NCBI GenBank assembly: GCA_013360285.1
Contig: JABWCM010000011.1
Location: 2,422-66,421, forward strand
Reading direction: 5' to 3'
Origin: Myxococcales bacterium
GTDB taxonomy: Bacteria; Myxococcota_A; UBA9042; JABWCM01
DNA: 64,000 nucleotides
The notes under the pieces were generated by a model that made no database searches, had not been told where the DNA came from, and saw nothing but the letters and a program-made list of their open reading frames with translations. The position numbers and the translations under genes were made by a program. Positions 6,572-61,283 of the stretch are shown here, one piece after another. Positions within the stretch are counted from its first letter, which is position 1, and the number at the start of each line of letters is the position of its first letter.

Positions 6572-7469
6572 CCCTGTGGTCGATCATCCCCGCCGGCGTC
6601 CTGATTGGTTAAGCGTCATACAAATCGCCGGGGTGTATTTGATTTTGGGAACGACTGGTGCATTCGTGGTGGAATTCGCCCCACACGATGTGGCCACAAC
6701 ACCGGCTGTGCGTGAGTTTGCCGTGCCTGCGGACAGCGACGCGGCAGAATGGGTGCGATATCGGGATGAGGCAGTGGCCCTGGTGTTGGCCGAAGAGTTG
6801 GCGTGGTTTCATATCGATCCTCTGGTGTGGGAGCGGCTCGTACAAAACCAGCGATTCGTTCAGAACGAAGGGGAGTTGAACGTGGGCGATCAGGAGTTGT
6901 TTATGCGGGCCTTGGCTATGGGCATGCACCAAGATGATCCGGTAGTCCGAAGGCGGATGCTTTCCCGGCTAATTCAACTGCTGGAGGCGGAGGTCCCTGA
7001 CCCCACCGAATCGGAAATTGTTGTTTATGTTCATTCGAATCGGGGGCGTTTCGTAACGGCAGAACAACGCCGATTTGAGACGTTGTTTCAAAAAGTCCCG
7101 CGGGATCAGGATGGGATTGACAAACGTTCCCCACGACCGTGGTTCGATTCCCCGCCGCCCTTGGCCCATTTTGGTTCCCAGTCGGAATTACAGCGGGCGT
7201 GGGGGAAAGATCTGGCTACGGCGATTTTCGCCTGTTCCCGTGGGCAATGGTGTGGACCTGTGTTGTCTGCTTATGGTGTTCATTGGGTGAAAGTAACCGA
7301 CATCATTGCTGAATCGGAGCCGTCGGTCGATCAAAGTCGGGAGTGGATCGCCGAAAAAATAAAAGCCGAACGGAGGGAACGTTGGGTTCGGCAGCGCCTG
7401 GATCAACTCGCCAGTCGGTTGGGGTTGGTGCCGGTTCGGGTTGGGGTAGGGGAAGACGATGCGAAGTGA
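6564..7469 (+). CDS. PpiC/rotamase-like peptidyl-prolyl isomerase domain protein
   Basis: ALAMGMHQDDPVVRRR and WCGPVLSAYGVHWV; position within the DUF3604 module. Confidence 0.75.
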   Translation: MGNPVVDHPRRRPDWLSVIQIAGVYLILGTTGAFVVEFAPHDVATTPAVREFAVPADSDAAEWVRYRDEAVALVLAEELAWFHIDPLVWERLVQNQRFVQNEGELNVGDQELFMRALAMGMHQDDPVVRRRMLSRLIQLLEAEVPDPTESEIVVYVHSNRGRFVTAEQRRFETLFQKVPRDQDGIDKRSPRPWFDSPPPLAHFGSQSELQRAWGKDLATAIFACSRGQWCGPVLSAYGVHWVKVTDIIAESEPSVDQSREWIAEKIKAERRERWVRQRLDQLASRLGLVPVRVGVGEDDAK

Positions 7470-8601: not shown

Positions 8602-8649
8602 GGTTGTGAAAACCCAGGCAATTTTTGCGAACGTAATAAAAAGGAGGGA

Positions 8650-8681
8650 GCCCGTCGGGTTTTCCAGGGTTCCCGACGGGC
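8650..8681. terminator. Hairpin between convergent genes, probable terminator
   Basis: 10-bp stem GCCCGTCGGG/CCCGACGGGC, with a T-run a few nt downstream on the minus strand. Confidence 0.55.
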
Positions 8682-8820
8682 CGTTTATTGATGTTCCGCT
8701 GTGCGAGAGAGGGGCACGCGAAACCAAGAAGGGATTGCGAGAGAGGCAGATTGATTGACAATGTACCGCCACCCGAGTCGGGTTTCGGTACAGCGTTTTT
8801 CTGGCGGGCACATAGTGTTT

Positions 8821-9261
8821 TTACGCGGCGGCTTTACCTGGAGCCGGCGACGTTGGCACTATGAATTTGAACAATAACATACCTACCAGCATGGATGCTA
8901 CGAATGTCAGCACGGTGATTTTTCCCGACGCCAACGATACCAGGCCTGGTCCCGGGCAATACCCCGCGATTCCCCACCCCAGGCCGAATAACGCCGCACC
9001 CGTAAGTAGTCGTCCATCCAGATCTTTTTTTGTCGGCAGACTGAATGAACGGGCGAATAGTGGTTGTTTTCGTTTTAAGATAAGACGGAAAAATATACCG
9101 TAAGTAACTACCGCGCCGCCCATTACCCCAAGCAGAGCCGGATCCCAGTTGCCAAAAAAATCGAGAAAACCGACCACATGTACAGGTTGGGTCATGCCGC
9201 TGATGCCGAGCCCAATGGCAAACAGGACGCCGGATACAAATGCTGCAAGTTCTTGTTTCAT
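8821..9261 (-). CDS. YeeE/YedE-type sulfur transporter subunit
   Basis: GLGISGMT...GFLD...WDPAL and GWGIAGYCPGP. Start at MKQELAAF, overlapping the upstream stop. Confidence 0.85.
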   Translation of the reverse strand: MKQELAAFVSGVLFAIGLGISGMTQPVHVVGFLDFFGNWDPALLGVMGGAVVTYGIFFRLILKRKQPLFARSFSLPTKKDLDGRLLTGAALFGLGWGIAGYCPGPGLVSLASGKITVLTFVASMLVGMLLFKFIVPTSPAPGKAAA

Positions 9262-9728
9262 GGGGATTGTTCTCCTGCCGATGTGGTTTCCGTCAATTGC
9301 GGTTTCGGATCTATGACGTGATGGACAAGGTACGTTGAAAGCGCACCAAAGGCGATAAATGTGATGGTAGCGATGATGGAACGTTTGGAAAAACGACTGA
9401 TCCCGCATACCCCATGGCCGCTTGTGCAGCCGCTGCCGAGGCGGGTCCCGAAACCGACCAACAATCCGGCGACGATAACCCACGGCATCGATGTTCCGAG
9501 GCCGTCGTAAATCAACGCCGGATTGAAGGCCACGATACCGATGCCGCCGCCGATGAGGCCCAAAATGAACGCGACGCGCCACCCCATGTCGCCTTTGGGA
9601 TGGTCCAACGCACCGCCGACCACTCCGCTGATCCCGGCGATTCGACCAAGCGTCAGCATCATGATCGCCGCGGCGATTCCGATCAGCACACCGCCGATGA
9701 GCGGAAGCACCATGATTGACAAATCCAT
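9258..9728 (-). CDS. YeeE/YedE family sulfur transporter subunit
   Basis: GRIAGISG and [21 protein letters not shown]. Confidence 0.9.
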
Positions 9729-9764
9729 TGTTTTTCTCCTTTTGAATTGACCGCTACAGTTAAA

Positions 9765-11462
9765 TTAACTACTCCCTTTCGGTAACTTTGTCGCGGCCAC
9801 AACCGCATCATGAATGTCGAACACAAATCGGTCAACTCCGAGTTTTTCCCAGAAACCGGAACGTTGCATCACATCTCGAACCGGGCCTTTTACCGATGCA
9901 AAATAAAGTTTGATGTGGGCCTGTTCGAGAAACTCGGCGATTTCGTGGAGTGCGGCATCTGCCGACGAATCCAACTCGTTGATGCTGCTCGCGTCGATAA
10001 TGACGGTATGGGGTGTTGGTTTGGTATCAGTCAGTGTTTTGTGGAGCGTTTCTTTAAGAAACGACACGTTGCCGAAATAAAATTGGGCATCAATACGCAG
10101 AATCAACACCCCGTCGACTGCTTTGGCTTCGGGAAACCGCAATAAGTTACGATAAACGGTGGTACCGGGGAGGCGACCCAGTATCGCGGTATGGGGGCGG
10201 GTGGTTCGGACAACAAACCACAACAGGGAAGCGCCGACGCCCAACCCGATCCCTTCTTCAATCCCCAACACCAACGTTGCCACAAAGGTGAAAACCAACA
10301 ACGCCAAATCCGCACGTTTGACGTGCCAGAGGTGTTTGATTTCGGCGATGTCCACCAATTGGGCCACGGCTACCAGAATAATTGCGGCCAACGTGGTTTT
10401 GGGAAGGTAATAAAACAGCGGCGTCAACGCGACGAGAACCAATATGATGACGGTGGCCGTAACCAGTGCGGCCATCGGAGACCGGGCTCCGGCTTGGTCG
10501 TTGACCGCTGTGCGCGAAAATCCACCGGTAACCGGCAATGCGCCGAGAATCGATGAGCCGATATTCGCCAATCCAAGCGCGATGAGTTCTTGGTTCGGGC
10601 GGATTTCGTAGCGGTGTTTGCTTGCAAACGCTTTTGCAACTGAAACCGACTCCATAAACCCAACCAAGGCGATGGTCATGGCCGCCGGCCACAACCGGAC
10701 CAACAATTCCGTCGAAAATAGTGGAAAAACAACGTCGGGAAGGCCCTGGGGGACGGAGGCGACGATTGCGACGCCTTTGTTGTGTAGGCCAAACAACCAC
10801 ACAACCAAAGTCGACAACACAACAACGACAAGGAATCGGGGAAATTTGGGAGCGAATCGCCGCAACAGGAGCAAAGTGGCCATGCTGCCGATCCCGATCA
10901 GCAACGTTGTTGTGTGGATTTCGCCGATTTTCTGAAAGATTTCTAAAAACGATCCAAAAATCGAATGGGTGGACGACAAGGGCAGGCCCGTCAGATGTTT
11001 CACCTGACTCATACCGATAACCAGGGCCGCAGCCGAGGTGAATCCGCTGATAACCGGATGCGACAGAAAGTTAACAAGAAATCCCGCACGCAGCAGACCC
11101 AACCCCACTTGAAAAACGCCGACCAACAACGCCAAAAAAATCGCGGCGGTAATAAATTCGGATGACCCGGGGGCCGCAATGGCGGAAGCAGAGGACAACA
11201 CAAGCAACGACACCATGGCCACGGGCCCGACCGCCAACTGCCTCGAGGTGCCAAACAACGAATACAAAACGAGTGGAAGAGTTGACGCGTAAAGACCCAA
11301 AATCGGGGGAAGGCCCGCCAACAGCGCGTAGGCCATTCCCTGCGGGACCAACATGACGGCGGTGGTCAAACCGGCGGAGCCGTCTTGAAGCCACTGAGCT
11401 TTTTTATAGGACCCCATCCATTCAATCGCCGGAATCCATCGTTTTAAGGCAGCCAACACCAT
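9765..11462 (-). CDS. SulP family anion transporter with STAS domain
   Basis: VPQGMAYALLAGLP, GTSRQLAVGP, NQELIALG and a C-terminal STAS domain (IIDASSINELDSSA). Confidence 0.93.
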   Translation of the reverse strand: MVLAALKRWIPAIEWMGSYKKAQWLQDGSAGLTTAVMLVPQGMAYALLAGLPPILGLYASTLPLVLYSLFGTSRQLAVGPVAMVSLLVLSSASAIAAPGSSEFITAAIFLALLVGVFQVGLGLLRAGFLVNFLSHPVISGFTSAAALVIGMSQVKHLTGLPLSSTHSIFGSFLEIFQKIGEIHTTTLLIGIGSMATLLLLRRFAPKFPRFLVVVVLSTLVVWLFGLHNKGVAIVASVPQGLPDVVFPLFSTELLVRLWPAAMTIALVGFMESVSVAKAFASKHRYEIRPNQELIALGLANIGSSILGALPVTGGFSRTAVNDQAGARSPMAALVTATVIILVLVALTPLFYYLPKTTLAAIILVAVAQLVDIAEIKHLWHVKRADLALLVFTFVATLVLGIEEGIGLGVGASLLWFVVRTTRPHTAILGRLPGTTVYRNLLRFPEAKAVDGVLILRIDAQFYFGNVSFLKETLHKTLTDTKPTPHTVIIDASSINELDSSADAALHEIAEFLEQAHIKLYFASVKGPVRDVMQRSGFWEKLGVDRFVFDIHDAVVAATKLPKGSS

Positions 11463-11621
11463 GTCCCATTCTCCTCGGCACTTGCCGTAGGTAGGTAGAG
11501 CATAGATCGTGCCAAGTAAAGATGTGTTGGAAGGCGGCGGGTACACCTTGGAAGGATCGGGGTGGGATTGTTTCACCGTGAAACAGCGATGAAACATAAC
11601 ATGTTTCATGTCCGATGCGGG

Positions 11622-12032
11622 TTATTCCGTCGGGTCGGGTCGCAGCAGTTCGCCTAAAATACGGAGGGCGTCAATCGTGGTGAAGATGCCGACCACTAAG
11701 TCGTCGTCCATCACTACAACCGAGCCGATTTTGGTGTGCTCCATTTGTTGTACGACGTCCAGCAGTTCTGCGGTGGGAGGCACGGCCACGACTTCGGCGC
11801 TCATCGCTTCTTCTACGGTCAACTGGGTGTTGCCTTGGCCTTGAATGCCCTCGATCAACCTCAGATCGCGTTCTGTTACGATTCCGACCAAGGAACCACT
11901 TTTTAATACGGGCAGATGGCGAATTCCGTGTTCGTACATGAGTCGTCTTGCCGAATCGGTGCTCGCGTCCAAACGGATACTGTGTGGGCTTCGGGTCATC
12001 ACGTGAGCCATGATCAATGTATCAGCCGGCAT
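11622..12032 (-). CDS. CBS-pair domain protein
   Basis: IRHLPVL..LVGIVTERDL and IGSVVV..VVGIFTTID. Confidence 0.88.
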   Translation of the reverse strand: MPADTLIMAHVMTRSPHSIRLDASTDSARRLMYEHGIRHLPVLKSGSLVGIVTERDLRLIEGIQGQGNTQLTVEEAMSAEVVAVPPTAELLDVVQQMEHTKIGSVVVMDDDLVVGIFTTIDALRILGELLRPDPTE

Positions 12033-12164
12033 GAATCAGGTCTCCTTTGGTGTGAAAATCAAATGGGTGCTGTAAACAGCTACCGTACAGCTTGATATAC
12101 ACCAAGTTCCAACCCGTTTGAACCCCAATGAAACACGATGATGTTGTGAATTTTCCCAAACTCG

Positions 12165-12326
12165 GAGTTTGTGAAAAAATATGGGCGCGGGCTGTGGGCG
12201 TGGATTTTGCGCCGAATTGGACTCGAAAAACCCGAGTCATATCGGGAATATGGCGCAGGGTTTTTCGAAGCCAAGGCGGCCACAAGCCACCGCCCAGAGA
12301 CCGCGCAGCTATTTTTTAACAAACTC
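12165..12326 (-). repeat. 162-bp element, copy 2 (inverted orientation)
   Basis: GAGTTTGTGAAAAAATA...TATTTTTTAACAAACTC; reverse-complement core GAGTCATATCGGGAATATGGCGC. Confidence 0.85.
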
Positions 12327-12387
12327 CTAGATGTGGTGTACCGTTGGGTTGGTTTTTGAGGCGCGAGAGGATCGGAAAGGAGCGGCG

Positions 12388-15075
12388 ATGGTCAAAAATG
12401 CTCACGAGGCGTTGCGTAAAGATGTTCGGTTGTTGGGAGAGTTGTTGGGGCGACTGCTCAAAGAACACGGCGGGGTGTTGTTATACGAAAAAGTGGAGCA
12501 GGTACGACGGTTGGCCAAAGAAGCCCGCGCCGGAGGCAAACCTGCTTTTTCTAAACTTCAACATGTGTTAAGTGAGCTTCCTCTTGAGCAGGCATACCTT
12601 GTTGCCAGGGCGTTTTATCATTTTTTGGCGTTGGCCAACGTTGCCGAGCAACATCATCGGGTTCGGAGGCGGCGCCATTATGAACGAGACGCCGCAGCAA
12701 CGCCCCAGCGTGGTTCGTGCGCCGATGTTTTTGCGCGGCTTTTGTCCGGGGGAATGTCGGCTGATACGTTGTTTCACGCTGTTTCTCAACAGCGGGTAGA
12801 GTTGGTGTTGACCGCGCATCCGACGGAGGTCTCACGAAGGACTTTGCTGAGAAAGTATAATCATATCGAACTGTTGTTGTCCGAGCGGGATCGTCCGGAC
12901 CTGACGGTGGCGGAATCGGAAGCGGTGGTCCGTTCGTTGGCGGCCGAAATTCTGTCGTTATGGGAAACCGACGAATTACGCCGGCGCCGACCGACTCCGA
13001 AAGACGAAGCGATCGGTGGGTTGTTTATTGTGGAACAAACGTTGTGGGATGCCGTTCCGGCGTTTGTCCGGCAGATCGACGACACGTTGATGTCGATGTG
13101 TGGAAAACGATTGCCGTTGGATGCGGCGCCGGTGACCTTTGGCTCGTGGATGGGCGGAGATCGGGATGGAAATCCCAACGTGACGGCATCGGTAACGCGC
13201 GAGGTATGTTTGTTGTCGCGGCTTATCGCTGCGCGGCTTTACACCCAACAGTTGGAGAAATTACGCGCCGACCTGGCGGTGACCCGATGTAACGCGGCAC
13301 TACGAGCAAGGGTCGGAGACGTTCGGGAGCCCTATCGGGTGTTGCTGACCCAACTGCGTGACCGCATGGCGGCGACCGCAGGTTATTTGGAGAAATCGCA
13401 GACAGGGCAGGGGGATACGGCGGATTCGACCAGCGGTGTATCGCTGATTCATCGGGTCGATGACCTTCGTGAACCACTGTTGTTATGTTACCAATCGCTG
13501 GTGGAATGTGGGTTAAGTGAGTTGGCGAATCGGGAACTGTTGGATTTGATACGCCGCCTTGCTGCTTTTGGGTTGTCGTTGGTCCGCCTGGATATTCGTC
13601 AGGAATCCCAACGGCATACCGAAACGTTGGACGCGCTGACCGTGGCGTTGGGATTGGGGTCGTACAAAAGTTGGAACGAAGAACAGCGGCAGGCTTTTTT
13701 GATCGCGGAACTCAACAGTAGACGACCGTTGACGCCGATTGGATTTGTTGCCGATCCGCAGGTTGAGGAGGTGTTGGCGACGTTTCGGACTATTGCGGAA
13801 ACCAACCGTGAATCGTTGGGATGTTACGTTATTTCCATGGCCCAGGCACCGTCCGACGTGTTGGCCGTGGTCCTGCTGCAACGGGAAGCCCGCATGTTGG
13901 ACCCCCTGCCGGTGGTACCGCTGTTTGAAACGTTGGCGGATTTGGAGTCGGCCGGTGACACTCTGCGGCAGTTGTTGGCGTTGGAAACGTATCGAGAACG
14001 CATCGGGGGGCGCCAGCAGGTGATGATCGGGTATTCGGATTCGGCCAAAGACGCGGGTCGATTGGCAGCGGCGTGGGCGTTGTATCGGGCACAGGAAGAA
14101 ATTGTGTCGGTGTGCCGCGAAGCCGGTGTGGCGGTGACGTTGTTTCATGGTCGTGGGGGAACCGTGGGGCGAGGAGGGGGGCCGACCTACCTTGCGGTCC
14201 AATCCCAACCGCCGGGTTCGGTGGATGGGACGCTTCGGGTCACCGAGCAGGGGGAAATGATTCAGGCGAAGTTCAGCACGTTGGGGATCGCCTTGAGAAC
14301 ATTGGAGTTGTATACCACGTCGACCCTGCTTGCGACCGTCCAACCGCCGGCGGATCCAAAACCCGAGTGGCGAACGAAGATGAACGACTTGGCCGCCGCG
14401 GCGGCGGCATCCTATCGGGAAATGATCCGGGAAACGGATGGTTTTGTGGAGTATTTCCGGCAAGCCACACCGGAGCAGGAGTTGTCGTTATTGAACGTCG
14501 GGTCGCGGCCGGCGCGGCGATCCAAAGGTGGCGGCGTAGAGTCGTTGCGGGCGATTCCGTGGGTGTTTTCCTGGACCCAAACCCGGCTGATGTTGCCGGC
14601 GTGGTTGGGGGTGGAACGAGCGCTGAGTGAAACGATTGGAATGACCAGCGACGGTAAGTTAACAAGTGGGGGCGTGCTGGAAGAGATCCAAACAATGTAT
14701 CGGGAATGGCCATTTTTTCAGTCGACGTTGGATCTCATCGAAATGGTGGTGGCCAAAGCCGATCTGCCGATTGCCGACTTATACGACCAGGTGTTGGTGC
14801 AACCATCGTTGCAGCCGCTAGGGGCACAATTGAGAGCCCGCCTAAAACAAATGGAAACGGTGTTGTTGACCATTACGGAACACGATGAATTGTTGCAGAA
14901 CAACCCGGTATTGAAACGGTCGATCCAGGTCCGAAATCCGTACGTCGATCCCATTCATGTGTTGCAAATGGAATTGCTGCGCCGCCGGCGCCAAGGCGTG
15001 GAGGACGACCAGGTCAACGTAGCGTTATCGATGACGATCAACGGCATCGCCGCAGGGATGCGCAACACGGGGTGA
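12388..15075 (+). CDS. ppc: Phosphoenolpyruvate carboxylase
   Basis: VLTAHPTE, SWMGGDRDGNP, QVMIGYSDSAKD, FHGRGGTVGRGGGP and the C-terminal GIAAGMRNTG. Confidence 0.98.
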   Translation: MVKNAHEALRKDVRLLGELLGRLLKEHGGVLLYEKVEQVRRLAKEARAGGKPAFSKLQHVLSELPLEQAYLVARAFYHFLALANVAEQHHRVRRRRHYERDAAATPQRGSCADVFARLLSGGMSADTLFHAVSQQRVELVLTAHPTEVSRRTLLRKYNHIELLLSERDRPDLTVAESEAVVRSLAAEILSLWETDELRRRRPTPKDEAIGGLFIVEQTLWDAVPAFVRQIDDTLMSMCGKRLPLDAAPVTFGSWMGGDRDGNPNVTASVTREVCLLSRLIAARLYTQQLEKLRADLAVTRCNAALRARVGDVREPYRVLLTQLRDRMAATAGYLEKSQTGQGDTADSTSGVSLIHRVDDLREPLLLCYQSLVECGLSELANRELLDLIRRLAAFGLSLVRLDIRQESQRHTETLDALTVALGLGSYKSWNEEQRQAFLIAELNSRRPLTPIGFVADPQVEEVLATFRTIAETNRESLGCYVISMAQAPSDVLAVVLLQREARMLDPLPVVPLFETLADLESAGDTLRQLLALETYRERIGGRQQVMIGYSDSAKDAGRLAAAWALYRAQEEIVSVCREAGVAVTLFHGRGGTVGRGGGPTYLAVQSQPPGSVDGTLRVTEQGEMIQAKFSTLGIALRTLELYTTSTLLATVQPPADPKPEWRTKMNDLAAAAAASYREMIRETDGFVEYFRQATPEQELSLLNVGSRPARRSKGGGVESLRAIPWVFSWTQTRLMLPAWLGVERALSETIGMTSDGKLTSGGVLEEIQTMYREWPFFQSTLDLIEMVVAKADLPIADLYDQVLVQPSLQPLGAQLRARLKQMETVLLTITEHDELLQNNPVLKRSIQVRNPYVDPIHVLQMELLRRRRQGVEDDQVNVALSMTINGIAAGMRNTG

Positions 15076-51049: not shown

Positions 51050-51211
51050 GAGTTTGTGAAAAAATAGCTGAACGGACTTGGACGGATGCTTTTGTCCCCG
51101 CTGCCCAGAAAAAAACCTGCGCCATATTCCCGATATGACTCGGTTTTTTTTCCGGGCATCGGGACCAAAATCCTCGCGTCCAAATCCGTCCCCATATTTT
51201 TTCACAAACTC
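51050..51211 (+). repeat. 162-bp element, copy 7
   Basis: GAGTTTGTGAAAAAATAG...ATATTTTTTCACAAACTC with the conserved core; overlaps the comEC stop codon. Confidence 0.88.
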
Positions 51212-53606
51212 AATCCCCGTCGTTTTTCCAAAGCCGTACCCCGTCGGATTCCAGGGTGACCGCGCCGTCTACGTCGGTTCGGAGCACTTCTGTCCCATGT
51301 TGTTTCCATCGTGTGAGCACCTCTTCGTCCGGCAAACCGTGGGCTCCGTGTTGATTACAGGACACGATTGCCAACGATGCTCCGGTTGCCCGAATAAACG
51401 CGGTGGAACTGGATGTTTTGGATCCGTGGTGGGCTACCTTGACAACATCTGCCGTTAACTTACCCGGATCATGAAGCAACCATTCTTCCCCTGCTTGCTC
51501 GATATCCCCCGTAAACAAAAACCGATGTCGACCGTAGCCGATTCGCAGCACCAAAGACCGGTTGTTTTCGGACCAATTTGCAGTCCGGGTTGAATCAGGT
51601 GGAGCCAACGTCTCGATTGTGCACTCCCCCAGGCCAAACCGGGGATCCAACGTTGCTGCAAAAGGGTCGAGCCCTCGGAAAATCGCCGTACTAAGCAGCA
51701 CCCATTGCAGGGGCGACGCGGTAAGTTGCCCATTCCACCACAGATGCTCGACATCGCGCCTTTGTAATACTGTTACCAAACCACCGATGTGGTCCAAATC
51801 GGCGTGGGTGTTGACAACCGCAGACAAAGACGAGATTCCGAGTGCATGCAACGACGGCACAACCGCGTATCGACCCATTCCCGTGGGGTCGCGATGGGTA
51901 CCGCCGGCATCGATCACGATGGGTGCTGCGCCGGGGCACTCGACGATGGCTGCATCCCCATGACCGACATCCAGATAGGTGATTCGAAGTCTGTCGATGG
52001 GTTTGGATTGAAAAACGAGCCAAATGACCCCAACGATACATACAACCCACGCAGTCAATCGAATACTTCGATGGCGATCGGTCCCCGAAAGCACAACGAA
52101 CACCGCGATGGTGGTCAATAACAACCACACACCGCTGGGGCGGCCTACCACCATGGTTTCCGACAAAAAAATCAACCGGTCCAACAATCCAAACAACCCG
52201 CCGTTGGCCCACTCAATCAGTTGCAGACCTACCGATTCACCCCAAGGCCACCCAATCAATACAAAGGTCAATCCCAATACCGAGCACGGCATCCAAAACA
52301 GGGTCACATAGGGTACGACGACCGCGTTGATGAGCGGGGCGCCGAGTGAAACAAAACCAAAATGATAAATCGATATCGGTGCGGTGGCGATCCATGCCGC
52401 AAAGCAGGAACACAGTGTTCCCAAGACCCAGCGTCGTATTCGATTTTGATGGGCGTCGTCCCAGCCGAGTTTCTGATAAAGAAATGACACGGTTGGCGCC
52501 GAGATCAAAAGGCCAAAGACGGCCGCAAAACTCAGTTGGAACGACGCCCCCCACACTTCCGCCGGCTCCCAGATGGCAATGGTCAAAGCGGCCGCGGCCC
52601 ACCAAGATAAGGTGTCGTGATCGTGATCCCGTAAAGCGGCCCATGCGAGCAACGCGATCATACAGCAGGCCCGAACCGTAGGGATATGAGAACCAGTCAA
52701 CAGGGTAAACAGGATACATCCAATGGTTGTGACCACCCAGGCCAACTTGTTGGCGGTACCGCGTAACAACAATCCGGTAAACCGGTTCAAGAGTCGTCGA
52801 CAACAAAAAAAGAGCAGCATGGCGACCCAGGCCATGTGTAATCCGGAAATCGCCAACAGGTGGGACGTGCCGGTGTCGGCGAATCGATCGCGTAATTCCG
52901 GGGTGATGTCACGAGCGGCACCGAGCAACATGGCGATGGTGACCGAATAAGCATCCGCCGACAAACCTTGGTGTAATCGTTGAATCAATCCGGTCCGTGC
53001 GCTGTGCCCACACCTGTCCGAGTCACCATCGGCATAACAAACCAGACCGGTGGTCGTGTCGACACCGATTCCGACTTTGGGGTTGGCATAGGGATTGCCA
53101 AGAAAACCTGGATTGGTCTGCTGGTTTGGCAACAGGGGGTGTCCAAGAAACAGCACCCGGCTTTGAGGTTGGGCATCAGGAAGATCGCCGTGGCCGTACA
53201 ACACGACGTTTTGGTTGGGAAAACCGACATCATTCCAGACGACGGTAGCGTCGACACTCCAGCCGTCGTTTGTTCGTGGGTCGAAGTCTCCGGTTAATAT
53301 GGCAACAAATCGGCCGGTGGGCCAAGGTTCCGCCCGTGGGGCATCGGGCTCCGAGTCGGCAGGTGACGGCACCCAAACCCAAGCCGTAAAGGTGGCCAAC
53401 CCAAACGCCAGAGGAATCACGATCATGTGGGGACGACGGTACCAGACGGCAACCAAGGCGACATAGGCTGTCAGCAAGATCCACAAAAACACCACGACGG
53501 TGTAAAGAACCCAACTGGTTTCAGCAACATATAAACTACCCAAAAAGGTGAATGTCACAGCCAACAGTGGACGTTTCCGAATCTGTTCAAACAACCCGCC
53601 GATCAT
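51210..53606 (-). CDS. comEC: Competence protein ComEC/Rec2
   Basis: HLLAISGLH and SFQLSF; metallo-beta-lactamase domain DVGHGD, THADLDHIGG and HHGS. Confidence 0.93.
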   Translation of the reverse strand: MIGGLFEQIRKRPLLAVTFTFLGSLYVAETSWVLYTVVVFLWILLTAYVALVAVWYRRPHMIVIPLAFGLATFTAWVWVPSPADSEPDAPRAEPWPTGRFVAILTGDFDPRTNDGWSVDATVVWNDVGFPNQNVVLYGHGDLPDAQPQSRVLFLGHPLLPNQQTNPGFLGNPYANPKVGIGVDTTTGLVCYADGDSDRCGHSARTGLIQRLHQGLSADAYSVTIAMLLGAARDITPELRDRFADTGTSHLLAISGLHMAWVAMLLFFCCRRLLNRFTGLLLRGTANKLAWVVTTIGCILFTLLTGSHIPTVRACCMIALLAWAALRDHDHDTLSWWAAAALTIAIWEPAEVWGASFQLSFAAVFGLLISAPTVSFLYQKLGWDDAHQNRIRRWVLGTLCSCFAAWIATAPISIYHFGFVSLGAPLINAVVVPYVTLFWMPCSVLGLTFVLIGWPWGESVGLQLIEWANGGLFGLLDRLIFLSETMVVGRPSGVWLLLTTIAVFVVLSGTDRHRSIRLTAWVVCIVGVIWLVFQSKPIDRLRITYLDVGHGDAAIVECPGAAPIVIDAGGTHRDPTGMGRYAVVPSLHALGISSLSAVVNTHADLDHIGGLVTVLQRRDVEHLWWNGQLTASPLQWVLLSTAIFRGLDPFAATLDPRFGLGECTIETLAPPDSTRTANWSENNRSLVLRIGYGRHRFLFTGDIEQAGEEWLLHDPGKLTADVVKVAHHGSKTSSSTAFIRATGASLAIVSCNQHGAHGLPDEEVLTRWKQHGTEVLRTDVDGAVTLESDGVRLWKNDGD

Positions 53607-53697
53607 CGGTTTAGCCTCCGCATAGTGATGGGGCATGCCAGCGTTCGAATCAGCGGTTTTTCGGTTGCCCCCAAGGTGTGTTATGGTCGCGCCCTGA

Positions 53698-54060
<363 letters not shown>

Positions 54061-54305
54061 CTCCAAATTCACTAATTTAAGCATCAACCATCGGAAGGAC
54101 CTGGCACCACCTGGAGCTATGACAAGGATTTGACCGAACTGCCGCCATCGCCGTCGGCGGATTGGTTCAAAAAAATAGCGGCTTGCCCGATAAAAAAATA
54201 TTTTCGCAATCAATGTGACATAATTTGGAAACATTCTTCAGGTGAAGTGTGCCTCGTTCGACGCTGAAAATGGTTTTGGCGTGATTTCAACGATGAGGTG
54301 ACAAG

Positions 54306-55721
54306 ATGAGGACTCCGCAGGATGTATTGGCGTTTGCCAAAGAACATGGCTGTCAGATGGTGGATTTAAAATTTCTTGATTTTGTTGGCATGTGGCAACA
54401 TTTAACCGTGCCGATCAGCGAGTTCGACGAAGGGCGATTTGAAGATGGATTCGGATTCGATGGGTCGTCCATTCGGGGATGGCAGCCGATTCATGCATCC
54501 GACATGTTGATGATTCCGGATCCAAGTACGGCGAAATTGGATCCGTTTCCGAAATATTCAACTCTGTCGCTGATTTGTGATGTATTCGACCCGATTACCA
54601 AAGAGCCCTATTCGCGTGATCCACGGCATATCGCCAAAAAAGCGGTTGCGTTTTTGAAGTCGACCGGAATCGGAGACCATGCTTATTTCGGCCCGGAAGC
54701 CGAGTTTTTTGTGTTTGATGATGTTCGGTTTGATCAAACCCGGCATTCGGCGTTTTACCATTTGGACTCCTCCGAAGGGCGGTGGAATACGGGTCGAGAT
54801 GAGAAACCCAATCTCGGATACAAACCTCGATACAAAGAAGGATATTTTCCGGTTTCTCCCACCGACAGTTTGGTGGATTTACGCACCGAAATGTGCCTGG
54901 AACTTCAGAAGTTGGGGATTCAGGTCGAAGCGCAGCATCACGAAGTCGCGACAGCCGGTCAATGCGAAATCGATATGCGGTTTAGTGATCTTGTGACGAT
55001 GGCCGACAATTTGATGTGGTTTAAGTATGTGATCAAAAACGTGGCACGTCGCAACAACAAAACGGTGACTTTTATGCCCAAGCCGTTGTTTGAAGAAAAC
55101 GGCAGCGGAATGCACTGTCATCAGAGCATTTGGAAAGGGGACAAAAACCTGTTCGCCGGCGACACGTATGCCGGGCTCAGCGACATGGCAATGCATTATA
55201 TCGGTGGGATTTTGAAACATGCACCGGCGATTTGTGCGCTCACCAATCCAACCACCAATTCTTACAAACGATTGGTTCCCGGTTACGAAGCGCCGGTCAA
55301 TCTGGCTTATTCGAGCCGGAACCGGTCGGCGGCGATACGGATTCCGGTTGCGGTGTATTCGGCGAAAGCCCGAAGAATCGAATTTCGAACGCCCGATCCC
55401 TCGTGTAATGGGTATATGGCGTTTGCGGCGATGTTGATGGCGGGACTCGACGGTATTGAAAACCGGATCGATCCCGGCAAACCGCTGGACAAAGATATTT
55501 ACGGGTTGTCGCCCGAAGAACTGAAAGATATTCCGAGTGTGCCGGGTTCGCTGGAGGGCGCATTGAACGCATTGCGTAACGACCACGAGTTTTTGCTGCG
55601 CGGCAACGTGTTTACCGAAGATGCAATTGAGATGTGGGTAAACTACAAAATCCAGTCGGAAGTACGCCCGGTGCAGATGCGGCCGGTTCCTTATGAATTT
55701 GCGTTGTATTACGATATCTAA
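54306..55721 (+). CDS. glnA: Glutamine synthetase type I
   Basis: FDGSSI, HHEVA, TFMPKP, NGSGMH and [12 protein letters not shown]. Confidence 0.98.
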
Positions 55722-56079
55722 CCGACCCCCAATCGACCCTTAAGTTACGAAATTCCTGCCGATCTGACTCGTCCAGCCCACGTCTCCACTTCTCTGCGGC
55801 AATCAATTCAATTTTCGGCCCTGTTGTGGTCCAAGGGGCGTCTTTGTTCGTTCGAAGCGATGGTTGACGTTTACCTGGTCAGTGGCCAATTGTTGGGCAG
55901 TTTAAAAAATGGTGATGGAGATTGGGCGACTTGCGGCCTTAGTCCACCGCTGTGGGTGTTTGTTGGCTCGGGCGAAGTGATTATCCCGTGAATCGGGCGA
56001 AGGGCGAAAGTGGGGCGGAAGAGATGGCATTGTCAATTATTACAACACATTAAGGCGACGTAGCGGCGAGGCAGAAAAC

Positions 56080-56096
56080 TTGGCACACAACCTGCA
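56080..56096 (+). promoter_or_regulatory. Sigma-54 (-24/-12) promoter
   Basis: TTGGCACACAACCTGCA: GG at 56082-83 and GC at 56094-95 with exact 10-nt spacing; predicted +1 near 56107. Confidence 0.75.
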
Positions 56097-56106
56097 ATAG
56101 TGTTTT

Positions 56107-57155
56107 TACGCGAGGCGCTGGATGAATAAACCAGCCAAGCAACCCAGGCCTAAAGTCACTAAACAGCTAATCCCTGTTCATTAGATCGGCCAAAAACATC
56201 AAGAGGGCCGGCAATCTCGAGAGAGATAAGCCAAACTCCCAGTACGACATACTCTGAATGACACACGTCACCTGATCACCGCAGCAGCAATGTTGTGGCT
56301 GAAGAAGTGTCGATAAAGTCAGTTGAATCCCATGTGAACCGTAAGGTCGTGTGTGTGTTCATCTCGAAAGAGGAGAGGATCGTCCACGAAGGTGGAACCA
56401 AGGCTGGAGTGAGAATTCCCTGAAGATGTGAACAACCAAGAAAGCATCGGGGTATTTGGGCGTCGCGGAAACGCGGCACAATACCAACGGACTTTCCCAC
56501 GGATGAAAGCCCTGAAGGCGCGGGTTCTCTGAAGCAATTCAGCGAACAAAAACGACAAGAGGGCAACACGCCAAAGATAATGCGGCGGTGCTGTGTGAAA
56601 GGGAAAAGCTTTGAAGGGTAGAATCCCACGAGTGCTTGTCGAGTGAAACAAATCGACAACCAATGAAAAGAGAAAACCGTCACGAAGGAGAGAAACCTTG
56701 AAGGCGGAAAGGCGGCGGGCTAGGTAAACCCGAAGCCGATTTCGTAAGTCTTCGGACTCAGCGAACTCGATAAATGGATTTTCATTGAGAATAGCGCTGT
56801 AGGGAAAAAAAACCTCATGAGAGGTGCTGTTCCAAAAACAGCAGGATCAAACGACCGGGAGTGTCGAAAGGCCCTCCGGTGGAATTTCACAATGGCCGTT
56901 GGTTTCCTTCGGACTTTGTCGAATCCAGTGTTCTCTGAAGTAGACGTAAGCTAGTGAGCGGATGACTCCTTGGAATACAGGGAAGACCTGCTTGTCGAAA
57001 TACCTCAAGGCCGGGTCACTGCAAAGTGATAATGGCGTAGAGGGAGTGTCAACCAATACTACACTACGACAAGCAGATAGAATACGCTGAGTAGCAACCT
57101 AACTGCATGAGAGGACAGGACAACACGGTGACGTGTACCGTCCAGCACGTTTGAT
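56107..57155 (+). ncRNA. Candidate ~1.05 kb highly structured non-coding RNA, family not recognised
   Basis: No credible CDS; upstream sigma-54 promoter; 5'/3' closing helix; at least 8 GNRA/UUCG hairpins; G-U pairs on the + strand; repeated TGAAG/CAYGAG module. Confidence 0.75.
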
Positions 57156-57192
57156 ACGTATCCCTCTGAAGAGGAATTTCGGGTTTGTTTGG

Positions 57193-58356
57193 TCATGTGT
57201 TCTTCAGCGTCTCGCTTTTTTTTTTGCCAAATTCCAAAACAAGTGGTGCCGGACCGATATCGCCAACCAACTGTTCATCGTTGTAGATAAGACATCTTTG
57301 TTCAGTGATTTCCCAGCGATTGCCTTCCAACAACGTTTTACCCACATCATAAAAAAACACCCAGTCGAAATAAGCCGAGTCCACATTGCGGTCGAGCGCA
57401 AACGGGGTCAAGAAATCCGTATACGTGTTCTCGGAACCAGGGGCACCGTTGACGAACAGCACCTGGCGCCTGTCATCCCAATAAAGCCGGGTCAACGACA
57501 AGATATTCAACAGTATTGTGCGTGAACTGGTGTGGGTTTGCGCCAACTTCGTATCGATTTGTTGCGCATAAACGAAAGATTCCGGGCAGTCGTAACGGCA
57601 CGGAAACCAGCCAATATAATGGAAAAATGTCAGAGATAGGTTGTTCAACAATGGTTCAAAGTGGTCACTAGCCCGGGTGCTTTGACCAATGATGGAGTGG
57701 TTGCGGTAAATTCGATCGAGCGAGACATAAGCCTGAACACAACAGGATGGATAACCCAGTAAGTTACCAAGTTTTGTCATCAGTTCCCGTTCCATGGTAG
57801 TATACGCATAGGCCAAAAGCTGTTGATCCAGTTCAACCGCTTGATGGAGTCGGTCGCGGTCCCAACCGATGTAGGTAAGCAATCGCTGATTTTCCGGAAC
57901 ACGGGAGTCGACGCGGAACACGTATGGGTCTTCGGGTTTGTGGTCGCCTTGATTCACCCTGTTTTCCCGGTGGGTACGGGCGTCGGAGTCACAAGTGTAT
58001 CCGTCAAGCCAATCTTCGCTGATCGTAAGAGGATAACTGGCTGTAAACAATCCGGTTGTTTCAATTTGTTTCCGTGTGGATTCCCATCTAGCGGCGGGTA
58101 CAATTTCGCGGATCAGCGGTTTTAAGCCGAGTTGCAGTGCGGTCCACTCGCCGTCGTTGGCCCCCAACCCAACGTCGTGCCGAGTATTGGCAAATTTGCG
58201 ATACAGTTTGTAGGTTGTTGGGTCGTTGAGATTCGTCATGGCAGCAAGCGTAGAGTTGTCTACGTGACCCCAATAGAGGTTTGCCGCAGCCTGGAGTTTG
58301 GAGGGTAAAAACTTCATCATGTCCTGTGTCTGGGATCGTAGCAGGACCTCCAGCAT
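57193..58356 (-). CDS. Hypothetical protein, DUF483-like
   Basis: LGNLLGYPSCCVQAY and WFPCRYDC Cys motifs. Confidence 0.6.
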   Translation of the reverse strand: MLEVLLRSQTQDMMKFLPSKLQAAANLYWGHVDNSTLAAMTNLNDPTTYKLYRKFANTRHDVGLGANDGEWTALQLGLKPLIREIVPAARWESTRKQIETTGLFTASYPLTISEDWLDGYTCDSDARTHRENRVNQGDHKPEDPYVFRVDSRVPENQRLLTYIGWDRDRLHQAVELDQQLLAYAYTTMERELMTKLGNLLGYPSCCVQAYVSLDRIYRNHSIIGQSTRASDHFEPLLNNLSLTFFHYIGWFPCRYDCPESFVYAQQIDTKLAQTHTSSRTILLNILSLTRLYWDDRRQVLFVNGAPGSENTYTDFLTPFALDRNVDSAYFDWVFFYDVGKTLLEGNRWEITEQRCLIYNDEQLVGDIGPAPLVLEFGKKKSETLKNT

Positions 58357-58413
58357 GTTTCCGACATGTTGTCATACTTTGGCGGGCCTCGTCGACTATG
58401 AGCGGAGGTTTTT

Positions 58414-59229
58414 GTGCCGGAATTACCCGAGGTAGAAATTTACCGACAGAATATGGTTGCCTGGTTGGGGGATGACGTGGTCTCTGGGGCGGTGATAGTC
58501 GACCCCACGTTGGTTGTGACCCACAATGTGGCGATAGTGGAACGGGACGTGGCCGGATTGCGGGCGGAGTCATTACGCCGAATCGGCAAATTTCTGATTT
58601 GGACAACCGGCGCGGGATCGGCTTTGGTGACTCACTTAAGGATGACGGGGAAATGGGTTCCGCAATCACCCGGAGATCCTACTCGGTTTGTTCGGGCCAA
58701 GTTAGTGGCCCATTCCGGAAAGGAGCTGGCGTTTGTCGATGCCCGACGATTGGGGCAATGGTGGTGGGGGCGGTATCACGACGTGTTCCACATGTGTGGG
58801 GTCGCGGAATTTGGACCCGATTTATTGGATGCCGACCTGACGGCCGAGCGGCTCCATGACAGGCTCCGCGGGTCACGTCGCAACATCAAACAGGTGCTGA
58901 TGGACCAAGGGGTGCTTGCCGGTGTGGGCAACATCATTGCGTCCGAAGGGTGTTTTCGGGCACGGGTCCATCCGGCGGCCATTGCCGGCGAATTGTCGCT
59001 GGACGTTGTTGCTGCACTTTTACGGGAAATTCGAGCCCATTGTGCCGAAGTTATTCGCGATAATGTAGGTGAGCCGGTCACTTACCAAGGGGAGCCGGGT
59101 GCGGTCAATTCCTTTCTGGTATATGGAAGGGACAATCAACCGTGTTCGTTTTGTCAACAATCGATTCGCCGCGTTGTGATGGGGGGAAGATCAACCTATT
59201 TTTGCCCCCAGTGCCAGTCGCTCACTTAA
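58414..59229 (+). CDS. mutM: Formamidopyrimidine-DNA glycosylase
   Basis: N-terminal PELPEVE, HLRMTG, AGVGNI and zinc finger C..C...RSTYFCPQCQ. Confidence 0.95.
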   Translation: MPELPEVEIYRQNMVAWLGDDVVSGAVIVDPTLVVTHNVAIVERDVAGLRAESLRRIGKFLIWTTGAGSALVTHLRMTGKWVPQSPGDPTRFVRAKLVAHSGKELAFVDARRLGQWWWGRYHDVFHMCGVAEFGPDLLDADLTAERLHDRLRGSRRNIKQVLMDQGVLAGVGNIIASEGCFRARVHPAAIAGELSLDVVAALLREIRAHCAEVIRDNVGEPVTYQGEPGAVNSFLVYGRDNQPCSFCQQSIRRVVMGGRSTYFCPQCQSLT

Positions 59230-59268
59230 CAAAAGCGCATGGCGGAATCGGTTGGTAAGTGAGGGGGG

Positions 59269-59853
59269 TCACTCCACACCGGTGAGCATTCGGCGGTAAT
59301 TCCACGCCGGAGACCAGCCGGCGTCCCGATCGATAATTCGGCCTTGGCGGTTGAGCACATAGGTGGTTGGAAACTGGCGGATTTGCATCTGACGCCCAAC
59401 CTGGTCGTCGCCAAGATAAACCGGATACCGTACCCCTTCCGCTTTCACAAACGCAGCAACTTCTTCGGGGCTGCCGTCGAGGGCGACTGCAACCAGCGCT
59501 GCATTTGCCGGCAAATCGTCATGGAGACTGTTAAGCTGCCGCACTTCCATTTTGCATACACCGCACCACGGCGCCCAAAAATGCAGCAATACGGCTTTTC
59601 CGCGAAAGTCGGCGATGGATTTTCCCACTCCGTCCGGTGTGCGTATCAGAAATGGTTCGACTAACGTTCCGTCGGTCGGAAGTAAATCCTTTGAATTCCA
59701 CCATTTTATCGCGACCAACCCGATGACCATCAATACCGCCAAAATAATGATTTCTCGTACAAAACGAAACAGCAAACCCAGCATTTTGTGGTGGCGTTTG
59801 GGCAAGGGTGCGGCCGGCTCCGGCACGTCGGGCAGTGTTTTTCTCTCGGTCAT
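59269..59853 (-). CDS. TlpA-like thiol-disulfide reductase
   Basis: N-terminal TM helix, FWAPWCGVC and FPTT. Confidence 0.88.
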   Translation of the reverse strand: MTERKTLPDVPEPAAPLPKRHHKMLGLLFRFVREIIILAVLMVIGLVAIKWWNSKDLLPTDGTLVEPFLIRTPDGVGKSIADFRGKAVLLHFWAPWCGVCKMEVRQLNSLHDDLPANAALVAVALDGSPEEVAAFVKAEGVRYPVYLGDDQVGRQMQIRQFPTTYVLNRQGRIIDRDAGWSPAWNYRRMLTGVE

Positions 59854-61283
59854 TGTGGTTGTTTTTTACCTGGTCGTTTGGGTGCCGACTCGATGGGTTC
59901 GAGTTTGACGGTGGACAACAATTGTTGTGTGATGCCAACGGGATCACCCAGGCGCTCGCCCCACAACCCTGCCACCAACGATTCTTGCACGGCGACGTGC
60001 AGCGGTGGTTTCGGAGTAGTTCGGAGCGCCGCCGCTGCTTCGTTGGCATCTTCGTGGGTGTCCCAGATGCTGACCCACGCCATCACGTAACGTTTCTCAG
60101 CCCCACATTCAAACAGCATCCATGTATCTCCGTCCCAACCGGCTGCAGCGATTGTTGCGACGTCTCGTGGACTTCCCTGCGCAAAGAGGGTCCCTTTCAG
60201 AAACTCTCCGGCAGTTTCTGTTATTTTAGCAGAACATTGATGTAAATTAAATTCAGTTGGAACGGTGAACCCAATGGATTGTGGATAATCGCGAGGTTCG
60301 GAAAACCAGCGTTCGGGATGCAAAATCGCCTCCGTTGACAGAGGTGGTTCGTGATACAGGGTGTCGAGAGTTTTTGGACCGTGGTGTTCCAGAGCGTACA
60401 TCACAAACTTTAACCCTGCGGCATAAGGAAACAACAACGATTCGGCAATTACCGGCGGGGCGTTGACGCTCTGCATTGCGGCTTGCATTTGTGTCGCCAA
60501 ATTTTCCAACAACCGTTTTCGCATCGAAACAGCGTCTTCGGTGTTGGCATCGATTCCGAGCATGTCATCGGCCATAACCAGTGTTGCGTCTCCCTCGATC
60601 AGTGCTTGGATGGCCGACTGGATGTCGGAAAGTCCTTCTTGCGGTTCCATAAACCGACCGAGGTCAAAATGTTGATCCTGAAGGGCATGAACAACCTCGT
60701 GAACCAGCGTCGGGCGCTGGAGAAAGGACGGCAGCCAGTCGGCAACAAACAACGTCTTTTTTTCCCAATCGTAATAACCGGCAACTTGATCACGCAGCAA
60801 AAGTTTCAACTCGTCGGCCATGTTGTAGTTGTCGGGCAAAACCCCCAGCAGTTGAAATGCAACGGCAGTCCACTTCAACAACCGTTGTGAATCGGTGGTA
60901 TCCAACCGCTCCGTCACATAGGTCAAAATCGCGTCTTTGGACGCGACCTTAATTCCAACCGGGCGCATTTCCGGAAGCTGACGTAGCCGAATCGCCTCGG
61001 CTTTGGCGGTGTGTGCCAGTTTGATCAACTCCGCATCGTCTATTTTGGGTGTGTCCGCAAAGGTTTCAGAATCGGGTTGGCAGGTAGTGCAGGCGGTTAT
61101 CATCAGTCCGGAGCAAAACAACGTAACCAGCGTCGTGAAACGCCCAAGTGGACCTAATCGCCCTTCGATTATGGACGGGTTTGCTGAAGTACAATCGTCG
61201 TCAACCATTGTGTTTGGTAGTAACATAAGAATCCCGTTATTCAGTTGGTATCGCAAAGTCATGAAAAGCACGCACCGACTCAT
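59850..61283 (-). CDS. Putative zinc-metallopeptidase-like lipoprotein
   Basis: AGYYD, LVHEVVHALQDQHF, ALIEGDAT, FPY..G and PP.STEAILHPE. True start is probably downstream of 61283. Confidence 0.7.
   Translation of the reverse strand: MSRCVLFMTLRYQLNNGILMLLPNTMVDDDCTSANPSIIEGRLGPLGRFTTLVTLFCSGLMITACTTCQPDSETFADTPKIDDAELIKLAHTAKAEAIRLRQLPEMRPVGIKVASKDAILTYVTERLDTTDSQRLLKWTAVAFQLLGVLPDNYNMADELKLLLRDQVAGYYDWEKKTLFVADWLPSFLQRPTLVHEVVHALQDQHFDLGRFMEPQEGLSDIQSAIQALIEGDATLVMADDMLGIDANTEDAVSMRKRLLENLATQMQAAMQSVNAPPVIAESLLFPYAAGLKFVMYALEHHGPKTLDTLYHEPPLSTEAILHPERWFSEPRDYPQSIGFTVPTEFNLHQCSAKITETAGEFLKGTLFAQGSPRDVATIAAAGWDGDTWMLFECGAEKRYVMAWVSIWDTHEDANEAAAALRTTPKPPLHVAVQESLVAGLWGERLGDPVGITQQLLSTVKLEPIESAPKRPGKKQPQ

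Follow-up and report, generated by a model that had tools for sequence, protein, structure and literature searches.

Positions 56107-57225 on the plus strand of a 64,000-nucleotide (nt) stretch of DNA from a Myxococcales bacterium (contig JABWCM010000011.1; the whole stretch is called the window here and its genome G000) very probably form a stand-alone gene for a structured non-coding RNA (ncRNA) of about 1.1 kb, which is expressed and belongs to an uncatalogued family. A first-pass annotation, made from the letters of the window, had already proposed a stand-alone large ncRNA, possibly of an undescribed class. This proposal is borne out by a promoter of its own, the lack of fixed neighbouring genes, the covariation among homologues and contigs from RNA libraries, and all strings quoted in the annotation are found where it had placed them.

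Covariation and architecture of the RNA

Twelve full-length sequences were aligned with E-INS-i and folded with RNAalifold, which resulted in a consensus of 184 pairs in 38 helices. Compensatory changes on both sides of a pair are present in 127 of the 184 pairs compared with 62 ± 4.5 in shuffled alignments, and standard pairs account for 91.2 % of the cells compared with 77.4 ± 0.5 %; neither value was reached in any of 500 shuffles. If the partner is slid by one to three columns, pairing drops to 39-44 %. Furthermore, the consensus pairs include 223 G·U cells versus 42 A·C cells and the fold therefore fits the plus strand. The best-conserved part of the molecule, a domain near the 3' end, was described by a covariance model of 198 positions (R1; window 56926-57120), which scores 179.8 bits on the window's own domain. 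In the alignment of 48 matches to this model 93.6 % of the cells pair (60.8 % after shuffling), 51 of 54 pairs have changed on both sides and the covariation score is 0.781 (0.193 after shuffling). Covariation among homologues, on which the first-pass annotation had let its ncRNA call depend, is consequently found over the full length as well as within the R1 domain.

At the level of single helices the earlier proposal fared unevenly. Two long-range helices which it had singled out belong to the best supported ones: 98 of 107 cells (92 %) are canonical at 56661-69/56779-87 and 112 of 120 (93 %) at 56988-97/57067-76, and both helices have many compensatory changes. Among its tetraloop hairpins those at 56464, 56529, 57016 and 57123 are part of the covarying consensus, whereas those at 56279, 56338, 56363 and 56747 are located outside of it, in variable or inserted segments where the homologues fold different hairpins. 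The helix between GCTGGATG (56117-24) and CGTCCAGC (57139-46), which was supposed to close the whole region, is perfect in the window but canonical in only 27 of 50 family cells. It was rejected as the closing helix, and the terminal helix is formed by 56110-20 and 57205-15 instead.

Some points weigh against taking these figures at face value. One and the same alignment served to predict the structure and to count the pairs, which is partly circular, though the margin is very large, and the 48-sequence R1 alignment was fitted to the model. In addition, the 5' third aligns poorly and has weaker support (helices 2-5 are 78-89 % paired). In the central domain helices 15-21 reach 91-100 %.

The body of the RNA consists of about five domains, two of them alike, which are closed or punctuated by helices with internal loops of three by three nucleotides (Table 1). 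Besides its strong match, R1 gives a second, weak one on Domain III (56602-56827, 23.2 bits; E 4.9e-5 genome-wide), and in ten other genomes a weaker second match is found beside the strong one on the same contig. At least two domains therefore share one architecture. Domain I contains a variable insertion at about 56245-56379 which is absent in the relative G002 and in the homologous loci L021, L022 and L029. The hairpin 56677-56707 in Domain III carries a near-invariant 20-mer. The stretches with the highest conservation are unpaired or located within internal loops.

Nine of the 3x3 internal loops recur in the window RNA (56201 to 57170, plus strand), each with identical purines opposed to each other. 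The outer loop of the R1 domain consists of G-A-A opposite A-N-G, and the adjoining C-G and U-A pairs are nearly invariant in the 48 sequences. The opposed outer positions of the first loop are GG in 45 of the 48 sequences on one side and AA in 42 of 48 on the other. In the second loop they are GG in 25 and AA in 22 sequences at one position and GG in 33 and AA in 14 at the other, where mixed purine pairs are missing throughout and each position has one gapped cell; in the third loop GG (26), AA (20) and mixed pairs (2) occur at one position and GG in 45 of 48 at the other. As the model treats the loop columns as unpaired, this G·G/A·A covariation was not created by fitting. The loops point to ordered homopurine pairs and so to a defined recurrent motif.

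Table 1 Features of the RNA gene in the window (coordinates of the 64,000-nt stretch)
Feature	Position	Strand	Remarks
Sigma-54-type promoter (pattern match)	56081..56096	+	TGGCAC 56081-86 (GG 56082-83), TGCA 56093-96 (GC 56094-95)
Predicted primary transcript	56107..57225	+	about 1.12 kb; based on promoter, terminal helix with T10 and homologous contigs of 1012-1112 nt
Terminal helix, 5' strand	56110..56120	+	GCGAGGCGCUG; pairs with 57205-57215, 11 base pairs (bp), one G·U
5' hairpin CGCUGG-loop-CCAGC	56116..56136	+	conserved in G002, L021, L022; compensatory CGCUGA/UCAGUG in L011
RNA contig, 1073 nt	56117..57188	+ coordinates	run X6, 0 differences, depth 199.6; contigs of three other runs also cover
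Second closing helix AACCC/GGGUU	56141..56145 / 57181-57185	+	3/3 pairs changed on both sides
Domain I	56197..56428	+	closed by 56197-200/56425-28 and 56204-07/56418-21, 3x3 loop AAG/GAA between
3x3 loop 1	56201-03/56422-24	+	AAG/GAA, Domain I
Domain II	56434..56619	+	closed by 56434-37/56616-19 and 56441-45/56608-12, loop AAG/GAA
3x3 loop 2	56438-40/56613-15	+	AAG/GAA, Domain II
Domain II sub-domain	56509-56564	+	loop GAA/AAG
3x3 loop 3	56514-16/56557-59	+	GAA/AAG, Domain II sub-domain
Domain III (central)	56624..56805	+	helices 56631-36/56793-98, 56637-42/56653-58, 56659-69/56779-89, 56711-19/56729-37
3x3 loop 4	56628-30/56799-801	+	ACG on 5' side
3x3 loop 5	56682-84/56700-02	+	
Outer 3' domain	56813..57174	+	closed by 56813-16/57171-74 and 56820-23/57164-67, loop AUG/GAA
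3x3 loop 6	56817-19/57168-70	+	AUG/GAA, outer 3' domain
Outer 3' domain, contents	hairpin 56825-56843; helix 56844-53/57148-57	+	consensus helices 22-25
Domain V (R1 domain)	56926..57120	+	54 consensus pairs; best-conserved part; invariant loop AACCAAU; helix 56988-97/57067-76
3x3 loop 7	56937-39/57107-09	+	
3x3 loop 8	56954-56/57089-91	+	
3x3 loop 9	57007-09/57037-39	+	
Hairpin ACACG-GUGA-CGUGU	57123..57136	+	consensus helix 38; CCGCG-GUGA-CGCGG in G002
Terminal helix, 3' strand	57205..57215	+	CAGCGUCUCGC; pairs with 56110-56120
T-run, ten T	57216..57225	+	directly after terminal helix, inside 3' end of open reading frame 57193-58356

Distribution, known families and gene context

A BLAST search with a 1141-nt stretch revealed one relative among 60 genomes, G002, which belongs to the same order and to another family; the rest of the family is visible only by the covariance model. 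The copies of the window and of G002 can be aligned from the promoter to the T-run with a mean column identity of 76 %. A 20-mer invariant between both was used to scan metagenome contigs and 185,579 species genomes. In the metagenomes it occurs at 26 loci, 11 of which are homologues according to nhmmer, and in the species genomes at 11 loci, where the sole homologue is the contig of G002 itself. Among the 11 metagenome homologues there are seven contigs, 1012-1112 nt long, which are made of the RNA alone. The IMG/VR contig L084 (1-1095) is likewise entirely a full-length homologue (profile positions 11-1098) and probably an assembled transcript misfiled as viral.

Within the class, R1 has matches in 40 of 107 genomes, which represent 10 of the 18 families that were scored; in a sample of the phylum 21 of 151 genomes have matches, six of them among the 123 outside the class. 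Most of the genomes have one to three separate loci, up to four are found, and G000 has a single copy. G054, an assembly of 20 contigs with 3 loci, looks like the genome of an isolate. According to the profile, the R1-matched loci are full-length relatives of about 0.75-1.1 kb. The RNA is a family spread through the phylum, with varying gene neighbourhoods. Many R1 matches are located within a few hundred bases of the ends of contigs of metagenome-assembled genomes (MAGs) (e.g. G001:C4, G042:C90, G064:C36, G071:C155, G092:C409, G002:C117), and the assemblies seem to break at the RNA, perhaps via paralogues or strain variation. In two metagenome contigs (L015 1233-1600 and L016 982-1348, minus strand) the full copy is immediately preceded by an additional weak match to the 5' third of the profile (E 4e-5 and 7e-5), which might represent a tandem duplication of part of the RNA or an extension of divergent sequence at the 5' end.

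The first-pass annotation had seen no signature of ribosomal RNA, tmRNA, RNase P or group II domain V, and a search with the covariance models of Rfam 15, which include OLE, GOLLD, ROOL, HEARO, raiA, group I/II introns, RNase P, 6S and tmRNA, is in line with this. There is no match at the gathering score in the whole 64-kb window, one noise match of 16.8 bits (E 4.3) at E ≤ 10 in 55700-57300, and none at E ≤ 0.1 in 16 homologous loci. G000 has separate genes for RNase P RNA, 6S RNA and transfer-messenger RNA (tmRNA). Going by titles and the openings of abstracts, no description of the RNA was found in the literature, although supplementary motif lists may hold more. In one publication (10.64898/2026.10.21.760802) Myxococc, sigma-54, Polyangi and metatranscriptom have 0 occurrences each. 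On these comparisons the RNA is rated as a putative new class.

The gene is located in a gap of 1.47 kb between glnA (54306-55721, plus strand; Pfam Gln-synt_C/N) and a convergent open reading frame (ORF) of 387 codons (57193-58356, minus strand), and its start is 386 nt beyond the end of glnA, which has the same orientation. The locus is without a coding signal, in agreement with the earlier view that the gap contains no credible coding sequence. The longest stop-free run on the plus strand of 56105-57235 comprises at most 68 codons, the short ORFs of the RNA stretch on this strand have 42-45 codons, and a minus-strand ORF (56276-56683, 135 codons) has no Pfam match. In 12 homologues all stop-free runs of the plus strand are limited to 171 codons, and those of the minus strand are long, up to 308 codons in L030, because the opposite plus strand of the RNA is purine-rich (AT skew up to 0.38, GC skew about 0.17). 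Substitutions are evenly distributed over the three codon phases in six pairs of homologues (chi2 0.26-1.77), the frames are not conserved and indels of all lengths occur.

The annotation had also described the RNA as located downstream of glnB-glnA. This position is not shared by the family, other copies being found beside different genes. The copy of G002 is not near glnA but divergent from a gene for a periplasmic binding protein, and for this reason the adjacency to glnB-glnA looks coincidental. When the ORFs on both sides of the RNA were clustered for the 21 of 22 loci that match the profile, neither a conserved neighbour, the largest cluster comprising four loci, nor a recurrent transposase or integrase was revealed. 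The RNA gene is independent of its neighbouring genes. The convergent ORF 57193-58356 shows a weak match to DUF483 below the cut-off. Its stop and last codons overlap the 3' helix strand and the T-run of the RNA (57193-57225), so either the end of this ORF is miscalled or both genes share a termination region.

Promoter, ends and expression

The putative promoter of the window is of the sigma-54 type. TGGCACACAACCTGC at 56081-56095 contains GG and GC ten bases apart, corresponding to the -24/-12 elements, and from the usual spacing of such promoters the transcript would start at about 56107. The terminal helix begins at 56110, 15 nt past the GC of the promoter and 3 nt past the predicted start. 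The same element with the same spacing to the RNA is present in G002, and altogether six genomes of three families (G000, G002, G023, G033, G048, G028) have TGGCAC-N5-YTGC at a constant distance to the RNA; in the four f10 genomes (G023, G033, G048, G028) its position relative to the R1 domain is -686 to -712. G000 also contains rpoN.

Hence the promoter of the first-pass annotation is present and conserved in position in relatives, but the motif alone is not significant and it is absent in the families f8, f16 and f4. Several observations leave the case for sigma-54 control incomplete. By chance 0.67 matches to the pattern are expected in the window, two are found, and 17 of 100 shuffles reach two. 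The eight loci of f8 have TTGACN-N17-TAnnnT-like boxes of the sigma-70 type instead of the -24/-12 element, and f16 and f4 have other sigma-70-like boxes. An activator gene was not found among four nearby ORFs scanned with Pfam (59850-61283, 59269-59853, 59531-60049 and 51210-53756), and the upstream region of the window lacks the dyad described below. Judged from the motifs, the sigma-54 promoter would thus be specific to some lineages. The only other exact match to TGGCAC-N6-TGC within the window is located at 11500-11514 on the minus strand.

The dyad TGTTCA-N5-TGAACA (up to three mismatches) occurs at 12 sites within 320 nt upstream of five of the six sigma-54-type loci (L004, L045, L062, L075, L077), compared with a background of 0.08 per 320 nt; this enrichment is partly circular, as the dyad was defined on the same sequences in which it was counted. 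One site is positioned at exactly -61 in each of G023, G033 and G028. Patterns with a 6-nt spacer have no match upstream of the sigma-54-type loci. The dyad is a candidate binding site of an activator.

At the other end of the gene, the complementarity of both RNA termini is a general feature. In G002 the terminal helix (GUGAGGCGCUG/CAGCGCCUCAC, 11 bp) differs from that of the window by one compensatory change from C-G to U-A. In every lineage examined the ends are complementary and their sequences differ between lineages; other families have ends of unrelated sequence which pair over 8-13 bp, with 13 bp in f8 and 9-11 bp in f16 and f4. The ten T following the helix probably end transcription. 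G002 has seven T at this place, and the number of T is variable in one RNA contig. A local scan for terminators found no hairpin terminator at the 3' end of the RNA, and the candidate stem is the long-range helix 56110-20/57205-15 followed by T10. The families f8, f16 and f4 have an ordinary hairpin terminator behind the terminal helix, whereas the window and G002 have the T-run only. CGCUG at 56116-20 has two mutually exclusive partners, CCAGC(G) close by and CAGCG at the 3' end, and this alternative might act as a switch in folding or mark a site of processing. RNA contigs start exactly at the foot of the 5' hairpin 56116-36.

Expression was followed in public sequencing runs. In 20 of 24 runs listed, 0.75 or more of the sampled words are present, and 11 of these runs are sludge metatranscriptomes from five studies with 0.81-0.96 of the words. 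Four RNA runs (X4, X6, X12 and X16, from four studies) were mapped as contigs on 53500-59500 of the window. The flanking genes of this organism are covered in X4 at a depth of 0.3-7.7 with 0 differences, orders of magnitude below the summed depth over 56113-57117, which amounts to 370,000-615,000. As this sum is inflated by 1734 overlapping contigs and exceeds the capacity of a run of 150 million letters, it is a sign of very high abundance only and not a measured level. The summed depth is about 800-2600 in X12 and about 1200-12800 in X16. Pieces of glnA reach a depth of 1-4 in X4 and stop at 55798, and no contig joins glnA to the RNA; a low read-through contig covers 57144-57403 (depth 549). 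X6, X12 and X16 show little or no cover of the flanking genes, and the DNA runs X21-X23, from the sample of the RNA runs X6-X8, contain next to none of the words. Neither was used as evidence.

A transcript of about 1.05 kb starting near 56107 had been predicted by the annotation. RNA-library contigs spanning 56117-57188 agree with its existence. All expression evidence, however, comes from assembled contigs, which are blind to strand, true ends and level. Furthermore, contigs start at 56116/56117, 9-10 nt past the predicted start, and those of X6 and X12 stop short of the 3' strand of the terminal helix, at 57188 and 57182. For this reason the ends of the mature RNA may not be those of the model. 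Adapter letters abut 56118-56129 (X4, X16) and 57182 (X16). Loss during library preparation or processing could account for the missing extreme 5' end.

The contigs also reveal variation within the samples. Those of X16 and X12 lack 97 and 81 bases at 56260-56358 and 56712-56794, exactly the two variable or inserted segments, so variants or relatives without these expansions coexist in the samples. A second contig of X12 (depth 603) has seven differences in 56597-56649 and looks like a co-existing strain variant. At 56629 it changes the loop ACG to AUG, the commoner form in the family, and its change at 56649 corresponds to GAAAUA as found in L018 and L019.

Proposed function and comparison with known systems

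In the lineage of the window, transcription would be started by the sigma-54 (-24/-12) promoter, whose motif is conserved. The first bases of the RNA would pair with the last ones and seal the molecule, and the U-run after the terminal helix would end transcription. Because the gene has its own promoter and variable neighbours, the RNA most likely acts in trans, as an abundant multivalent scaffold with the purine-purine loops as docking sites. A multivalent scaffold is the best guess in view of the abundance, the folding, the sealed ends, the repeated modules and the promoter types of the paralogues. With regard to what is docked, it is conceivable, at somewhat less than even confidence, that several copies of a protein bind the purine loops, resulting in a ribonucleoprotein or a sequestering RNA. 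RNA-RNA contacts at these loops that build an RNA-only assembly are considered rather unlikely, and the remaining probability is given to roles of other kinds. The widest form of the idea is a giant modular RNA machine, with an abundance like that of housekeeping RNAs, in which the nine purine loops assemble a large particle with many proteins or with the RNA itself and sigma-54 and sigma-70 paralogues tune its amount; this is possible, although on the doubtful side. Two findings weigh against the scaffold. CsrA (PF02599), Hfq (PF17209) and TROVE/Ro60 (PF05731) were not found in the genome of G000 (92.8 % complete), and no conserved neighbour gene indicates a partner.

The same two findings are in favour of an architecture of RNA alone, where the molecule folds and self-assembles as a homo-oligomer and the purine-purine loops and conserved hairpin loops make contacts within or between molecules instead of binding protein. 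Large size, many GNRA-type loops and highly conserved unpaired segments would fit as well. ROOL, GOLLD and OLE are not known to be built of repeated modules, which counts against this explanation, as do the lack of homology to these three RNAs and the lack of an identified self-complementary conserved loop. On the other hand, cryo-electron microscopy structures of ROOL, GOLLD and OLE are reported under the title 'RNA-only complexes' (10.1101/2024.12.08.627333). On balance a purely RNA-based architecture is judged unlikely.

A catalytic RNA, whether a large ribozyme of a new kind or the RNA part of an enzyme, would explain why size, conserved core and abundance resemble housekeeping RNAs of the RNase P kind and why the stretches with the highest conservation are unpaired or in internal loops. 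However, no ribozyme or intron model matches, flanking exons and an associated protein gene are missing, and the patchy distribution (40 of 107 genomes) together with paralogues under alternative promoters argues against an essential housekeeping enzyme. Catalysis is accordingly regarded as very improbable.

Still less credit is given to two explanations which tie the RNA to its surroundings. As a cis element it would be the 3' untranslated region of glnA, or an antisense RNA or terminator for the convergent 387-codon gene. The distance of 386 nt to glnA on the same strand, the overlap of the 3' end with ORF 57193-58356 and the read-through contig 57144-57403 of X4 could be read in this way, but the conserved promoter of its own, the different neighbours in G002 and 20 other loci and the contigs not joined to glnA make such a role highly improbable. 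Equally improbable is a part of a mobile or viral element, such as a phage-borne RNA or the guide RNA of a transposon. Up to four loci per genome, the many matches at MAG contig ends and the IMG/VR contig might suggest mobility; yet BLAST found no match in 50,697 phage and 72,556 plasmid records, no mobile-element neighbour is conserved at the 21 loci, the copy of G000 is single and L084 consists of the RNA only. A small-protein mRNA or a dual-function RNA, for which one could cite the plus-strand ORFs of 42-45 codons and the minus-strand runs of up to 308 codons (L030), is the least credible of all, as three-base periodicity is missing, indels have all lengths, the G·U pairs fit the plus strand only, ORF 56276-56683 has no Pfam match and the minus-strand runs follow from the purine-rich plus strand.

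For the preferred reading, the multivalent scaffold, four groups of known systems are instructive. Precursors of ribosomal RNA (rRNA), 6S RNA, RNase P RNA and Y RNA are stable RNAs with paired 5' and 3' ends. The RNA described here resembles them in that its first and last bases form a helix which covaries across families, a feature typical of long-lived RNAs. In contrast to them, the U-run of the window and G002 follows right after the long-range helix, with no separate terminator hairpin. Processing would still be possible because RNA contigs start inside the terminal helix.

The Rev-binding site of the Rev response element (RRE) of human immunodeficiency virus 1 (HIV-1) is a purine-purine internal loop bound by a protein. 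The likeness would lie in homopurine mismatches within a regular helix whose identity is conserved. Unlike the RRE, two purine-purine oppositions flank one often Watson-Crick pair in the present loops, and nine copies occur in one RNA.

With the protein-sequestering RNAs CsrB/RsmZ (for CsrA), CrcZ/CrcY (for Hfq) and 6S RNA (for RNA polymerase) the family shares the features of an abundant trans-acting RNA, a repeated motif and paralogues whose promoters are regulated in different ways. CrcZ has an RpoN promoter, the type also predicted for the RNA of the window. According to PMC5113210, CrcZ and CrcY antagonise Hfq and Crc. The present RNA is, however, three to six times longer than these RNAs and far more structured, and its repeat unit is an internal loop in a helix and not a GGA in a hairpin loop (CsrB type) or an A-rich single strand (CrcZ type). 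G000 is without a CsrA or Hfq match, and a separate 6S RNA is present.

Only few large structured bacterial RNAs are known, and each of them, the RNAs of the ribosome and RNase P as well as OLE, GOLLD, ROOL and raiA, has opened a line of RNA biology. The RNA of the window is like the last four in being stand-alone and very large, with an intricate fold, covarying helices and conserved unpaired segments, and also in its high abundance and a biochemical function without assignment. At about 1.1 kb it is presumably larger than these four. For raiA, PMC12968392 gives an abundance comparable to rRNA and transfer RNA in one species. The family is set apart by the lack of a match in sequence or structure, by a different phylum and by repeated modules with the G·G/A·A loop; furthermore, it has its own sigma-54 or sigma-70 promoters and neither a link to phages nor a fixed partner gene.

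What makes the family attractive is its unusually clear covariation and its occurrence in numerous genomes of a phylum with a prominent place in wastewater and soil. It also constitutes a visible share of the whole-community RNA of sludge, as judged from contigs which give no absolute level and are open to misfiling. The homopurine loop is a defined and mutable feature and offers a handle for structural biology and genetics, and the split of the paralogues into sigma-54 and sigma-70 types is an entry to regulation. If the idea of a giant RNA machine is true, its particle would serve bacteria in which, as in G000, neither Hfq nor CsrA was found, and the RNA would rank among the largest non-ribosomal, non-intron structured RNAs of Bacteria, with a new recurrent structural motif.

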